Source: a virus (taxonomy: Duplodnaviria > Heunggongvirae > Uroviricota > Caudoviricetes). From it: a stretch of DNA of 40,547 bases. The DNA is taken from IMG/VR virus record IMGVR_UViG_2617270967_000014; one strand, given 5' to 3'. This document shows, in pieces, positions 21,001-27,000 of this stretch (the stretch's first letter is position 1; every line of letters starts with the position of its first letter). The position numbers are program-made.

Positions 21001-24000
21001 ATTATTCCCTCTCACTGGATTTTCCCAACAAAAAAGGAGCCGAAGCTCCTTTAGTTTCAGAATTCAAATTGTCTTGCCCGCAGGCTTTTCAGCATTGGCA
21101 TGGCCCGCTGGATAACGGAACTTGACATGTCGAGACGTGTTACCTCCCTCAGTAGCGCGTCTCTGTTCTTCGTCACCATGTAGATGGTCTCAAACGCAAT
21201 GTCATACAGCTTGTTCGTGTATGAGGAGTTCAGCTCTTTCATAATGGGATACAGGTGTTTGCTGATGTCCTGGGCTTTTTCCATCCAGAGCTGCATGTAG
21301 CAAAGGAGGATGATTTCTTCGGCTGTGAATTGTGGCTGAATCTGCGGCTGCTGTTCGGTTGGTGCTGTTTTTCCCTGGCTGAAATAGCAGTCTTCCAGTT
21401 TTTCGAATACCTCCCACGCCCGATCGGTTTCGAGCATTTTTGCGTGACGGGCTGCGCCGCGTTCTGTCCAGAGGATGAGGGAGCGGGCATTTTTACCAAC
21501 TAACCCGATTGTTTCGGGTCTGTTCTTAAACTCGCGTAATTCGTTTTTTTCAATTTTAAAGTAATGCTTTCCGGGCATGAATCGCGTCGTGTTGTTCAGA
21601 AAGTTATCAGAAATGTTTTTGATTTTTGTTCCGTAAAGGTGAGCCAACAGTTCAGTAGTAATTACGGGGATCTGGTTATAGGTAACAGGGGAAAGGTTTT
21701 CGACAGAAATTTGAACAGCCATAATGACCTCGCGTTTCGATAATTTTTACCTCGCCACCGTCAGGTGCTAATCATCGTGGTGGCGAACTGTGCGGGGTTA
21801 GCACTACCGGTCGAAACATCCGGCGAGCCTTTCGGCTCCCCCACACAGCCCGCCATAAATCGCGAATGTGACTGTGCTTAGCGCATAAAAAAACCGCCAG
21901 CGCGGTTATGCACCGTTTCGATATCCGGGGTGCTAATCCCGACGCCAGGTTTTGCTGGCGCGTGAGGAATATAGCCCCGAACACGCGACGTTGTCAAACT
22001 GATGGCATTGCAGATCCCTACGCAATGTAACACTATGTGTTATACATTAATAACGGAACAAAAAATGCGCATTTTTAAAAACGCCTGGTTTGAGCGATTT
22101 GCACGCAAAACAAAATATCCGACCAATCACTGCGCGAAATTGTTAAACAGGCTGATAACGGGCTTATCTCAGCAAACCTGGGTAACGGCGTTATCAAGCA
22201 ACGTCTGCCACGAGTCGGTGGCGGCAAATCTGGCGGTTATCGCACAATCATTTTCTATCGCGTCGGCACAAGGGCCTTTTTCGTATATGCATACGCAAAA
22301 AATGAACGTGAAAATATAACCGCTACTGAGGAAAGTGCATTTCGGAAGGGGCTCCTCACGTACTCAATCTAACAGATGAACAACTGGCACAACTGATTCT
22401 ACAGGGTCAGTTTACGGAGGTACCCAATGAGTAAAAATTACCGCAGTGATGCGCTTGCATCCGTACATGAAATGATGGAATCGCTTCATGATATCGGCGC
22501 AGTAACGAAACAGACTATGCGAGAATTCGATGAAACTTGTCTCCAGCCAGCGCCGGTAATGTCTCCGGAAAGGATCCGTGCACTGCGCGAACGAGAGCAT
22601 CTGTCTCAACCTGTTTTTGCCAGATACCTCAACGTCAGTAAAAACCTGATATCAGACTGGGAACGTGGTGTAAAACGGCCGGGAGGTGCCGCTCTTCGCC
22701 TTCTTTCAGTCGTAGAGAAAAACGGAATCCAGGTAATATCATGATACTCCAATACAACAAACCCCGCCGAAGCGGGTTTTCATTAGAAGCACCTTTAGTT
22801 TTGCTGTTCTATTTTAAGCTTGATAGTTTCATACAAAACAACAGTTGCGCCTGTTTTACATAATTCCCGGCCGTCATACGCACGAGACCAATAACACAAC
22901 CAGTTCTCGAGATCTTCTCGAGTATAGGTTTTGCAGGCCAGTCCCTCTGCCATTTCCACGATTTCATCGCCTGGTGCTGTTAACTCATAGCCATTCAACA
23001 ACAAGAAGACATAACCAGCCATCATAGCTGTTCGTTTGTTTGCATTAGCAAATGGATGATTCTGAATCAGACTTTCAATCAATACTGATGCCAGTACAAA
23101 CATGTCATTAGTCTGTTCATACCATCGAACCATGCTGGGACGAGACTGAGAAGAACTTAAATTATCAACACTCAGCACACTAACAGGTTCATCTGGTGTT
23201 TGAAGCTCAATTAAAAGGCGATTAATTTCGGTAAGATCATCAAACGAAAGGTAGTGCACTCCTTCAACAATATCAGCCATAGAGCACAATACCCATCATT
23301 ACACTTTTGAAAGTTCTTCCATTGCCTTCTCGTAACGAGAAAAACCGAAATCGAAAGCATTTTTCACCTGCTCACGATGAGTGCAATTTTCATCGATAGC
23401 CGGGCGCGGAGCTGCCACAACGCTTTTATCGCGAGGGGGAATAGTCAATCGCGGGTGTTTTTTTAGTGCGTAGCTCATTGGGTGTACCCTTACTTCTCCG
23501 TCCTGTTCTTTAACAAAAATCAAGTCAATACAAAATTAGTCAGGCTAATGTTGTTAGCATAGCCTAATACCAATCGTATTCACAACCACAGTAAGTGAAA
23601 AAACCCGCCGAAGCGGGTTAAGTGCGGGTGCGTTGAGGATGCCTGACACATCAGAGGTGGCGAGGGATTTCTCCCTCGCCTGGTCTCTTACTCCTCAGGT
23701 TCGTAAGCTGTGAAGACAGCAACCTCCGTCTGACCGGTTCGGATTCGTACCTCGCAGAGGTCTTTCCTCGTTACCAGTGCCGTCACTACGACGGTAATAC
23801 AGATGACGATCAGGGCGACTAACATCGCCTTTTGCTGCTTCATAGCCTGCTTCTCCTTGCCTTTCGGCGCGTAAGAGGCTAACCTACATGTGTCTAGCAT
23901 GAAATTGGCCTCAGATTAATGTTAGGCGTCTTGCAGGACGCGTAATGTTAACTGGGGTTTTTCTCTGTCTGCCTTACGGTGGCATGCCCGAGGCAGACAG

Positions 24001-27000
24001 CCTCAAGCACCCGCAGCAATTCTACTTAACTCTCGCTTTACCGCAAACCGTTTTTACCCGATATGGGAATTCCCATATCGTAATGAATTCAGTTCCCTAG
24101 TCGATCCATCAAAAACACAACCAGGCAGTAAACGCCCACAACAGCAATAACAGCCAGCGCACCTTCCATTGCCAGTGATATATCATCCGACATATTCCCT
24201 CCTTTGGTGTTAATCCCGGCGAACGTTTTTACCCCCACCGACAAATAACATATACTAAAAAAGTGATAGCCATAGCAACGCCTGTAATTGCAAATGCTTC
24301 AGGCCAGTTCATTGGCGCACCTCCTGCGGCGGTTCTGGTAGCGGCATCCAGTCGGTTACATTGCGGCTCTGTGTTTCGAAAAATTCATCACCATCACGGA
24401 CTACATCAAAAAACTCACCGTCTCGATATTGCGCATAAAGAACGAATGCGCCATCACATAAAATAATTACGTGCTGACCGTCATCCGGCATTCGCTCACT
24501 ACAGCTTATCCAACCATCCAGAGTTACCGGATGGTTGGTTGACGTTTCCGAGATTTCCCGAAAATTATTGGTTGACGAACCCTTCTTTTCCCGAAAGTTT
24601 CCAGCCTGAAGCATGGCGGCGCTGTCTGGCGGGGCAGCATATAGCGGCACGTATATTTCCGGTTCCTTATCAGCACCGGGTTGCTCTTCCAGTGAGAATG
24701 TCTTTCCGGTAAATCGATTCATATAAAGCACGGGCTCTGCTTCCAGCGAAGCCTGAGCAACAAGGGCCAGTGCTAAATCCAACTCAATTGCCTCGAGAGA
24801 ATTTTTGAATGCTGTCTGTTTTACTGCAAATTTCATCGCCTTTACATTTTCACTAACATGACTGATTAACTGCTCTTTTGTAAAAGTGGTCATCTCATTC
24901 TCCTTTGATGCGAATGCCAGCGACAATTGAAGCCTGATAGCTAATTTACTCACAGTACCGCCTCCTGAAAATTCCCCTGATAGAAAGCCAGCACGCGCTG
25001 CATAACTTCACTATTCCGGCACTCGCGACAGATTATGTTCAGGCGTCTATCGTAGCGGCGAATTTCTCCGTCTGGTAACTTTCGAATCAATGTCTGGTCA
25101 GTTGTTTTCTCCGGTGTCTTACGCCATACGCGATACACCTGTTCTGATGCAAAAACACCGTATTTACCGGACATGTATAAATCGCCACAAGCCAGTACAT
25201 CCACAAGGCAACGTCTGACTGAATGCCAGCCTGCTCCCGTCGCTCTCTCCAGTTGCGATATCGTCATGCGTTCATTTTTGCGTACCAATCCGATAATTCG
25301 TGCCTTCAGTTCTTCCCGCTGTTCGTGTGTAAAAGGTTTCGCCATAAGCGCCTCCGGCAATCACTTTTCCGACACAATACGACCGGATGAATCGACAATC
25401 TGTCGAACAATATCCCGGTGCTTGTTCAGCTCCCGCAGCGCGGCGCAGACTCGCTCCCACTTCTGGACCTGTTTTTTGGCGCGACGAAGTTCTCGACTGG
25501 CAGCATGCAGCGATGGAAGCATCACCGAACTGGCAGATTTTTCGGTGAATGATGGAACTTCTCGGATAAACTCATCTGTACTGGCCTTTGCCGTGCTCTC
25601 TGATGCCAACGGAAAACGATTCATTTCATCGCCTGCCGCGCTGTTTTCTGCGTCATGGTGTGATTGCTTATTCTGCGATGATAAGGCGCTCAAATCGCCG
25701 TTTTCGACATCAGGCATTTTGTAACGGAATTTTCCGTTGCTGATCTCGCGTACCAGGCGTCTCGTTGCTGTTACCACCGCCAACGTGGAAGCAACCTTAC
25801 GAGTGCTGACACCGAACTTCCCCGCCAGTTCCTCACAGGTTTTAGCCCCCTCCTGAGAGATAAACTCAATCATCATGTCAGCGCTAACTTTTGGAGCGAC
25901 CTCTTCGGTCAGCATATCCTGTGTTTCAGATTTTACTGGCCGCTCTTCGGTTACCCCGGCTTCACCTTCGACAGCCAGAAACCAGGTGTGACCCGTTTTA
26001 TCAACAACGCCATTTTTTTTGAGCTCCCACAGTTCGTTGAGAACTTCTTCACGGCTGATATCAAGCCGCGCCGCCAGTTCAACAGAATTGGCTTTTCCCA
26101 TCGCTTTCAGTGCATGCAATACGGTTTCCATCGAAAATTTACCTCGTCAAAAATTCTCACATACCCTGACGTCCAACGTTTGACCGCCAGCTCTCCCAGT
26201 TAAAATTCACCCAACGACCACCGTTCATGGTCATCCGGTCCATAATCCTCTCACCAAGAAGCGTGCTCATTGCGGCATGATTCAGGTTTGTCAGCATCCC
26301 GACACTGCGCAGTGATGCCGTCCGGCGGTCAACAATCTGGTGCAGTACCACCTGCTCGTTTTTCGTCTCACGCTGGATGCCAATTTCGTCAAGAACCAGG
26401 AGGTCCACTTCGCACAGTTCACGCAAAAATTTTTCCCCTGACAGTCCGTCGTCATAGCTGGCATGTAACGCGCTCATCACATCCGCCACGGTGACCACTA
26501 TCACGGATTTACCGGCCTTCAGCAGACGATTACCCACAGCCGCCGCCAGATGATTTTTTCCGGTTCCCGGATTCCCGCTGAACACGAAGTTTGTATAACT
26601 GGTCATCAATTCATCGACAATGGATTTCGCCTGGCTCAGAGCATGGCGCTGACCGTCGTTCTGCACCCGGTAGTTCCCGAATGAGCACTTCCTGTGAAGC
26701 GGCTGGATGCCCGCACGGTTCAGGATTTTTTCAACCCGCGCCTGATGATTCAGGCGGTTAATTTCCTCGCTGCGCTTACGGCCCTCAGCCAGTTGCCATT
26801 CCCGCCATTCGTCGGTCGTCCGGAACGGTGCTGCCACGTGCGGTGGTGCCAGACGGCGCACCCGTTCAAGAATCCCTCCAGTCGAAATGTTTTTCATGGC
26901 TGATTACCCCCTGAAACCCGGCGGAATTTCGGTGTCCGGTTCAGAAATGTGATTCACGCAACGCAGGCTGACTGCGCCAGCCTTCGGCAGCGACCACGGA

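Follow-up and report, generated by a model that had tools for sequence, protein, structure and literature searches.

What is the densely packed stretch of about 2.3 kb between the replication genes and the nin region of the prophage record IMGVR_UViG_2617270967_000014, and is it a hotspot for addiction and abortive infection? We analyzed the complete record (40,547 nt, Caudoviricetes), which is referred to as the window. The original prediction had placed a stack of toxin-antitoxin systems at 22000–24320: a RelE-like toxin remnant with its antitoxin, a Doc toxin with a small partner, a Hok/Gef locus and two small hydrophobic peptides. All of these elements were found at this place, except that the ribosome-binding site (RBS) of one peptide gene extends to 24324. 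Three of the modules were recognizable as toxin-antitoxin cassettes, one of them with a dead toxin, and the two peptides showed no sign of a toxin-antitoxin system. The best explanation, which we consider very probable on the basis of the sequence features, is that the record represents a 933W-like, lambda-like prophage lacking stx, and that the stack occupies the variable accessory ("moron") slot of its early-right operon with a hok/mok/sok cassette, a Doc cassette with its partner and a decayed RelE/HigA cassette.

The RelE-like toxin gene at 22065–22434 on the plus strand is a pseudogene. Three-frame translation revealed a single protein sequence that is split over three frames and jumps between them twice, and alignment with the intact operons of O26:H11 strain 11368 and of strain E423 placed a 1-bp deletion between 22109 and 22110 and another one between 22349 and 22350. 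The intact operons encode a toxin of 123 aa and an antitoxin of 105 aa that overlap by 8 nt; the intact toxin of the O26/O157 type is WP_001217944.1. The repaired toxin matched the RelE family PF06296 over positions 1–120 of 120 (E = 8e-46), and it was only weakly similar to the solved structure of HigB-2 from Vibrio cholerae (E = 4e-3). An intact toxin reading frame of the RelE/HigB2-HigA2 type was thus absent from the cassette. The copy in O104:H4 carries the same two deletions. The second gene (22427–22744, plus strand) is intact and encodes a HigA2-like helix-turn-helix (HTH) antitoxin of 105 aa, as seen from its matches to HTH_3 (E = 1e-7), to phrog_2104 and to the solved HigA-2 (E = 8e-8). 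The dN/dS values of 0.01–0.05 for the antitoxin indicated strong constraint. Its start overlaps the end of the toxin gene by 8 nt (ATGAGTAA), as in O26 and E423, and the cassette is therefore organized as a toxin-first operon. The same gene order is found in higBA-2 of V. cholerae, and like HigA-2 the antitoxin consists of a non-HTH N-terminal part and a C-terminal HTH. Unlike in higBA-2, the toxin in the window is frameshifted, belongs to PF06296 and has weak similarity to HigB-2. Thus, the predicted toxin remnant with an intact HTH antitoxin was confirmed.

Upstream of the operon a 19 nt imperfect palindrome (TGTAACACTATGTGTTATA) is located at 22026–22044 (plus strand). When the copies from the window, O26:H11 and E423 were aligned, TGTAACACTATGTGTTATA was the sole block that was kept in this upstream region, and its flanks diverged. 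We propose TGTAACACTATGTGTTATA as a candidate operator that also comprises an extended -10 element of the RelE/HigA operon. The toxin has been killed by the frameshifts, while the antitoxin or repressor and its putative operator were retained.

The toxin pseudogene still showed a low dN/dS of 0.03–0.05 in comparison to its intact relatives, and its inactivation must therefore be recent. Three near-identical toxin alleles carried three different sets of frameshifts: both deletions in the window, only the first one in FORC_029, and the second one together with a third in 23CRST049. All three alleles encode an identical antitoxin protein. The toxin thus appears to have been lost repeatedly and independently with the antitoxin being kept, which argues against selection maintaining at least this toxin. 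Two of the three 1-bp deletions sit in short A or G runs. The different frameshift sets could reflect repeated inactivation, or slippage at homopolymers or sequencing errors in some of the assemblies. In comparison to the O26 operon (4001–4682 of the O26 locus) dS was about 2.7 for the toxin part and about 0.4 for the antitoxin part. This contrast suggests a recombination breakpoint within the operon. The HTH protein is now an orphan antitoxin or regulator, which at most would regulate its own promoter or neutralize related toxins of other prophages.

The Doc cassette comprises 22777–23601 on the minus strand. The Doc gene itself (22795–23280) is intact and encodes a protein of 161 aa with the Fic fold, which was assigned to TIGR01550 with 122.1 bits (cut-off 38.65; E = 1.4e-35), to PF02661 with 44.4 bits (cut-off 24; E = 3e-11) and to phrog_577. 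Solved Doc structures were also matched (9vzc, E = 1e-12; P1 Doc 3k33, E = 1e-4). The Doc-type active site is present as H75-PFANANK-R83 (HPFANANKR). The general motif HxFx(D/N)(A/G)NKR reportedly goes back to work of Castro-Roa and colleagues from 2013. Homology to P1 Doc predicts a kinase with the Fic fold, which would phosphorylate EF-Tu and arrest translation. The window shares the Doc domain with this motif with P1 phd-doc and with chromosomal Phd-Doc systems (e.g., that of E. faecalis, 9vzc; PMC13034048), and it shares with P1 phd-doc a small gene that starts few bases upstream of Doc, as well as the temperate phage as a carrier. Unlike P1 Doc, the Doc protein of the window has a C-terminal extension of about 40 residues, and its partner is not a Phd/YefM protein.

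This partner is encoded at 23299–23478 (minus strand), 18 nt upstream of Doc, and has 59 aa. Its presence was in agreement with the prediction of a Doc toxin with a small upstream partner. The partner belongs to phrog_2208, a family of unknown function, and sequence and profile searches gave no match in Pfam, NCBIfam or PADLOC and no relevant match in PDB. The lack of Pfam and NCBIfam matches and a model with a single helix and no DNA-binding fold place the partner outside Phd/YefM. A comparison of the partner profile to P1 Phd by hhalign gave a probability of 0.2%. In the AlphaFold2 model, residues 1–33 lacked secondary structure and residues 34–57 formed one helix (pLDDT 82–93). An alignment of relatives showed that this C-terminal helix bears the near-invariant EQVKNAFDFGFSRYEKAMEELSKV and that the last 23 residues are almost invariant. 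For both the Doc and the partner genes dN was far below a saturated dS.

A word-indexed search for relatives of the partner resulted in 17 clusters, all from Enterobacterales, and when 1.84 billion representative proteins were searched exhaustively with a profile, 39 proteins were identified. Nearly all of them have 38–95 aa; the two exceptions, of 1274 and 2917 aa, were matched over short multiple stretches alone. A fusion to a known domain was not seen among the 39 relatives. In all eight contexts examined, including the window, the partner gene was directly upstream of a Fic/Doc gene with a spacing of 3–18 nt. Besides the window, these contexts were a myovirus-like tail module of Ewingella, a lambda-like prophage of Salmonella, a contig adjoining DinI and UmuDC, two lambda-like prophages from IMG/VR and two distant metagenomic members. 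Such adjacency across unrelated contexts is what characterizes type II pairs in general. On one metagenomic contig (705–1920) a partner-like gene is followed by two consecutive genes for Fic-domain proteins of 145 and 242 aa. From the sequence data, we concluded that partner and Doc form a two-gene module, and that the small protein is a putative antitoxin outside Phd/YefM. No paper on the partner or on the micro-proteins described below came up when the literature was searched with accession numbers and the peptide sequence.

The partner would most likely neutralize Doc by placing its conserved C-terminal helix onto the toxin, and unlike Phd it has no DNA-binding domain. A very small prophage antitoxin without a DNA-binding domain is known from PaaA2 of the paaR2-paaA2-parE2 system in a cryptic prophage of E. 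coli O157:H7, where PaaA2 neutralizes a ParE toxin and a separate gene encodes the regulator. PaaA2 is the nearest analogue for the possible mode of action of the partner. Unlike PaaA2, however, the partner has no regulator gene beside it in the contexts seen, and there is no sequence relation between the two. With modest confidence we lean toward a joint interpretation, in which the partner founds a new minimal class of Doc antitoxins, the 27-aa protein is real, widespread in prophages and a marker of the left border of a hotspot of toxin-antitoxin recombination, and cassettes are swapped there at a shared terminator hairpin. In this interpretation the partner would be a stand-alone single-helix peptide without a DNA-binding domain and with the signature C-terminus YEKA(M/F)EEL(S/A)KV. 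If it is true, regulation of the partner-Doc cassette must differ from that of phd-doc.

The third cassette, a Hok/Gef type I locus at about 23597–24063, was also as predicted. The hok gene (23688–23843, minus strand) encodes a peptide of 51 aa that matched PF01848 (HOK_GEF) with E = 1.4e-23 and 82.6 bits (cut-off 22) and phrog_251 with E = 1.8e-32; PGAP names it hokD. It is contained within a mok reading frame of 70 aa (23688–23900, minus strand) in the same layout as annotated for mokW and hokW of 933W. The leader of the hok mRNA at 23838–24012 matched the full model of RF01794 in Rfam with 110.3 bits (gathering score 59). Based on the leader match and the fold, the full-length hok mRNA has a predicted length of about 417 nt (approximately 23597–24012, minus strand). 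In the minimum-free-energy fold of 23596–24012 the 5' end GGGUGCUUGAGG (24012–24001) paired with 23638–23626, which corresponds to tac-fbi pairing of nt 1–12 with nt 375–387. A likely hok promoter consists of TAGAAT (-10, 24024–24019) and TTGCGG (-35, 24046–24041). The gene for the putative antisense RNA Sok is on the plus strand (23847–23962) and was read from the sequence; it matches the annotated sokW of 933W. Its promoter would comprise TTGCCT (23847–23852) and TAACCT (23870–23875) with a spacer of 17 nt, and the RNA is predicted to end around 23962 at a long hairpin followed by T5. The sok RNA is complementary to the region of mok translation start. The locus thus has the Hok/Gef-family peptide, the mRNA leader with the mok frame and the tac-fbi pairing that are typical for Hok/Sok type I systems.

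Over the whole length of about 445 bp, the hok module has about 92% DNA identity to hokW/sokW of 933W and Sp5, and the segment that the modules of the window, 933W and O26 have in common spans approximately 23618–24063. The hokW-sokW locus is a functional type I system (PMC8621323). Upon induction with mitomycin C sokW RNA disappears and HokW increases in a RecA-dependent manner, and in a deletion mutant phage release was halved, and the locus was reported to help lysis (PMC8621323). By analogy, translation of the stable hok mRNA of the window would be prevented both by tac-fbi pairing between its 5' and 3' ends and by Sok, a short-lived antisense RNA. Once sok is no longer transcribed, be it upon induction of the prophage, its loss or a shut-off of transcription, Hok would be made and would depolarize the inner membrane. 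The hok/mok layout, the position of sok and the leader structure are like those of hokW-mokW-sokW of 933W and Sakai Sp5, and also in 933W a 27-aa micro-ORF (small open reading frame) is found just upstream of hokW. In contrast to the window, where the module is in the slot, 933W has it toward the right end of its record, in the vicinity of attR and beside genes of the EaA/L0139 type. Further differences are a 34-aa ORF and a palindrome, which in the window stand between the 27-aa ORF and hok, and a terminator hairpin after hok that is not present in 933W.

Two small hydrophobic peptides with strong ribosome-binding sites had been predicted as further members of the stack. Both ORFs have GGAGG sites and both are kept in related prophages. 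The first encodes a 34-aa micro-protein with a single membrane span (MSDDISLAMEGALAVIAVVGVYCLVVFLMDRLGN; 24089–24193, minus strand, with the RBS GGAGGGA extending to 24202), which PGAP annotates as a hypothetical protein (WP_001278450.1). In comparison to copies with 89% identity it had 6 synonymous and 1–2 non-synonymous changes. The second encodes a micro-protein of 27 aa (MNWPEAFAITGVAMAITFLVYVICRWG; 24229–24312, minus strand, with the GGAGG site included to 24324), and its start codon and the TGA stop codon of the DUF551 gene overlap as ATGA. We collected 25 variants of the 27-aa ORF with identities down to about 50%. The frame was kept in all of them with a length of 25–33 aa (27 aa in 23 of the 25), and one variant differed by an in-frame 6-bp indel. 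All 25 showed the pattern M.WPEAF...ICRWG, a GGAGG-type RBS and a start codon that overlaps the stop codon of the preceding gene, whichever gene this was, as ATGA or GTGA. The ORF is unannotated in the prophage records of strain cM8a and O104:H4, and its exact sequence was absent from the protein collection searched. In other prophages, it is found directly upstream of ParDE or Doc cassettes in place of hok. The micro-ORF module was present in 690 of 5426 complete E. coli genomes.

We rejected the possibility that these ORFs encode additional type I toxins, since the 27-aa ORF is translationally coupled and there was no antisense signal. The region gave no Rfam match, and the two weak promoter-like sites on the plus strand were at the level of chance. 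Chance ORFs were also rejected, since the ORFs are conserved, the indel is in frame and synonymous changes are in excess. We take both micro-ORFs to be real genes, which end the upstream block and are not toxin-antitoxin loci. They would be conserved small membrane proteins that mark the left edge of the slot. Exactly at the junction of the micro-ORF module and the hok module a perfect palindrome of 22 bp is located (CGATATGGGAATTCCCATATCG; 24059–24080). It is kept in the O26 and O157 copies and absent in 933W. There is no T-run on either side of CGATATGGGAATTCCCATATCG, and the palindrome is therefore no obvious terminator.

The boundaries of the cassettes are defined by hairpins. The hairpin terminator CCCGCCGAAGCGGG at 22763–22776 could serve both strands, being common to the convergent antitoxin and Doc genes and forming the 3' boundary of the Doc cassette. 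The intrinsic terminator of the hok cassette at 23602–23619 (minus strand; AACCCGCTTCGGCGGGTT followed by a T-run) has the same hairpin sequence. In total, 8 terminator-like sites were observed, versus 3.6 ± 2.1 in shuffled sequences. The original prediction had assigned two types of hairpin terminators to the island; the CCCGCCGAAGCGGG type was indeed found at these two positions, and the cccagc type does not occur inside the island. The nearest hairpin of another type (21892–21907) belongs to an IsrK/C4 RNA module outside the island. In O26:H11 the antitoxin gene passes through one such hairpin straight into the 3' end of hok. Compared to this arrangement, the window carries the Doc cassette as an exact insertion of about 840 bp with a copy of the hairpin on either side. 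With one mismatch at most, CCCGCCGAAGCGGG occurred 33 times in 580 kb of related loci, 32 times inside slots, where it was always located just 3' of hok or Doc, and once outside. The presence of the cassettes varies among collinear phages, and they have their own terminators and putative promoters, as is typical for morons.

To see whether stacking is a peculiarity of the window, we surveyed related loci. The survey was anchored on DUF977 and resulted in 91 related loci with 40 distinct slots that were bounded on the opposite side by DUF968 or NinB. A DUF977 search of genome contigs contributed 11 loci; the survey is mainly based on IMG/VR loci, mostly from E. coli. The slots had a length of 1.7–6.3 kb. 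At least one cassette of our panel (Hok, ParDE, Doc, RelE/HigA) was present in 37 of the 40, and three had none. Hok was found in 32 slots, ParDE in 4 (on the opposite strand), the partner with Doc in 3 and RelE/HigA in 1. Among the complete E. coli genomes most had the Hok module, 217 had RelE/HigA and 125 had Doc. In Salmonella enterica (DAAWNC010000008.1, 3496–6009), Hok, partner and Doc, ParDE and VapBC are stacked downstream of DUF1627 in a lambda-like prophage. The slot of the cryptic prophage Qin of K-12 has the order relB-relE-hokD-rem-ydfU(DUF968)-ydfT(Q). Like the window, Qin combines a type II cassette of the RelE type with a neighboring hok gene, and the slot is the homologous one, located upstream of DUF968 and Q. 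The Qin toxin, however, is a canonical RelE with RelB upstream, where the window has a pseudogene of the PF06296/HigB2 type followed by its HTH antitoxin, and Qin has no Doc cassette.

These data support the view that toxin-antitoxin cassettes land in the slot again and again and that stacking is not unique to the window. The slot would have accumulated three independently acquired cassettes. In this respect the prediction of a hotspot was borne out by the survey, the Salmonella stack and the relB-relE-hokD arrangement of Qin. The prediction that these are not ordinary phage genes was an overstatement. According to the genome counts and to the PGAP annotation they are ordinary and widespread accessory cassettes of lambda-like prophages.

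Several points weigh against our interpretation of the locus as an accessory slot with three cassettes. The cassettes at this locus are known here from the sequence alone. The partner had no similarity to any known antitoxin that was detectable by sequence, profile or hhalign searches, and its antitoxin role is therefore deduced entirely from the gene neighborhood. The survey used a small protein panel and E. coli prophages that are redundant in sequence, and its counts apply to cargo of this panel. The number of sigma-70-like promoter sites (4) did not differ from that in shuffled sequences (4.0 ± 1.9), and the scan found no site upstream of the Doc partner. Since the scan stayed at chance level and missed even the putative hok and sok promoters, it neither supports nor excludes promoters of the cassettes.

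How could the prophage profit from the cassettes? A benefit may lie in prophage retention, phage exclusion or faster lysis, and the three functional explanations that we considered are not mutually exclusive. As originally suggested, the stack may be a hotspot for abortive infection and prophage addiction, with toxins that are kept for killing cells that lose the prophage or are infected by phages. The recurrence of such cassettes at the slot, as seen in the survey, in Salmonella and in Qin, is in agreement with this, and purifying selection acts on Hok, Doc and the partner, all of which are intact. P1 phd-doc is a classic addiction module and provides a precedent. According to a citation in PMC8621323, hok/sok of R1 reduces plating of T4. 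However, no protein of the island matched a PADLOC defense model above noise, and one toxin is dead and was apparently killed independently in sister alleles, which argues against selection for this toxin. Furthermore, the closest relative that was studied, hokW-sokW, has a pro-phage role instead (PMC8621323). We consider an addiction or defense role possible, if rather doubtful. 

The pro-phage role of hokW-sokW leads to the second explanation, that the cassettes serve the lytic cycle: Hok, and possibly Doc, would be released at induction and would hasten membrane damage and host shut-off, and this would improve the timing or yield of phage release. Besides the mitomycin C response and the halved release of the hokW-sokW mutant (PMC8621323), the orientation of the genes is consistent with this. 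The genes for Hok, Doc, the partner and both micro-proteins point in the same direction as the early-right operon, and antiterminated early transcription could therefore read through them. On the other hand, each cassette is closed by a terminator, and the precedent is one Hok relative alone, which is located in a different arm of 933W and Sp5. A lytic role of the stack as a whole is thus unlikely, though worth keeping in mind. We judge it similarly unlikely that stacking is a neutral by-product, with selfish cassettes piling up and decaying in a slot that tolerates insertions and offers shared hairpin homology. It would account for the same hairpin CCCGCCGAAGCGGG at the ends of the hok and Doc cassettes and its strong bias for slots (32 versus 1 in the 580 kb), for the exact insertion of the Doc cassette between two hairpin copies, for the decay of the RelE-like toxin in several independent ways and for the variable slot length. 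Yet Hok, Doc, the partner and the HTH antitoxin are under strong purifying selection, and the presence of Hok in 32 of the 40 slots points to retention and not to drift.

None of the three cassettes falls outside known families, and public genomes already contain the sequence in annotated form. Modestly new are the uncharacterized family of single-helix Doc partners and the unannotated, conserved 27-aa gene at the edge of the slot. The stack is a clean example of accessory toxin-antitoxin cassettes in a fixed slot, as they are well known from lambda-like prophages of pathogenic E. coli, among them the O104:H4 outbreak lineage. Of practical use are the precise map of cassette boundaries, a candidate family of Doc antitoxins that is missed by domain libraries and a 27-aa gene that is skipped by annotation pipelines. 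The repeated inactivation of the RelE-like toxin with the antitoxin being kept is a small natural illustration of module decay.

A prophage of E. coli strain cM8a is collinear with the window and has 99.9% identity to it over the 2.3 kb stack; for prophages of E. coli O104:H4 (2011C-3493 and others) the identity over the stack is 99.7%. At least 80% of the stack was found together at one place in 34 of the 5426 complete E. coli genomes. In the cM8a and O104:H4 records the PGAP annotation already names the genes of the stack accordingly. The annotation of these records is that of a lambda-like prophage, with the early-right operon on the minus strand of the window. A cI-like repressor gene is at 29022–29726 on the plus strand, and it is followed in minus-strand order by cro-like and cII-like genes, the replication initiator and a gene for a DnaC-like ATPase (26157–26897). 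DUF1627, DUF977 and DUF551 (24309–24893, minus strand) lie 3' of the DnaC-like gene and precede the stack. The stack is followed on the minus strand by an ORF6N antirepressor, NinB, NinE, further antirepressors, RusA, NinH and Q (17388–17822). Beyond Q there are a nanS-p-like esterase gene and then lysis genes and structural genes of a short-tailed phage. The edges of the slot are thus formed by the replication-proximal genes (DnaC-like, DUF1627, DUF977, DUF551) on one side and by the nin/Q genes on the other. This agrees with the predicted position between the replication block and ninB, except that the direct neighbor is not ninB but the ORF6N antirepressor with its C4/IsrK module (21057–21974).

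This module is one of two in tandem (19455–20389 and 21057–21974, minus strand), in each of which the ORF6N antirepressor gene is preceded by the C4 antisense RNA, IsrK and a1/b1 target elements. The two modules bracket ninB-ninE, and a third antirepressor gene (KilAC) is located at 18658–19380. Similar loci are the immI (c4-ant) region of P1/P7 and, in Salmonella, the IsrK locus of Gifsy-1.

Some further features were observed outside the slot. The small RNA (sRNA) STnc100 was matched over its full length at 16844–17049 (minus strand, 165 bits), between Q and the nanS-p-like esterase gene. This position is the site of the stx genes in Stx phages, and the prophage of the window has no stx. A match to the Rfam family sRNA-Xcc1 (73 bits, gathering score 53) was found at 3335–3420 on the plus strand within the structural region, opposite to the genes. 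Between the terminase and lysis genes, and on the strand opposite to them, there is a gene for an LPS core heptose(II)-phosphate phosphatase (11834–12415, plus strand), which looks like another accessory cassette. Genes for a DUF3024 protein, a RuvC-family protein and a serine/threonine kinase (29787–31697, plus strand) adjoin the cI-like repressor gene. The 933W kinase Stk excludes phage HK97. The kinase of the window resembles Stk, and its locus is a second candidate defense locus of the prophage.

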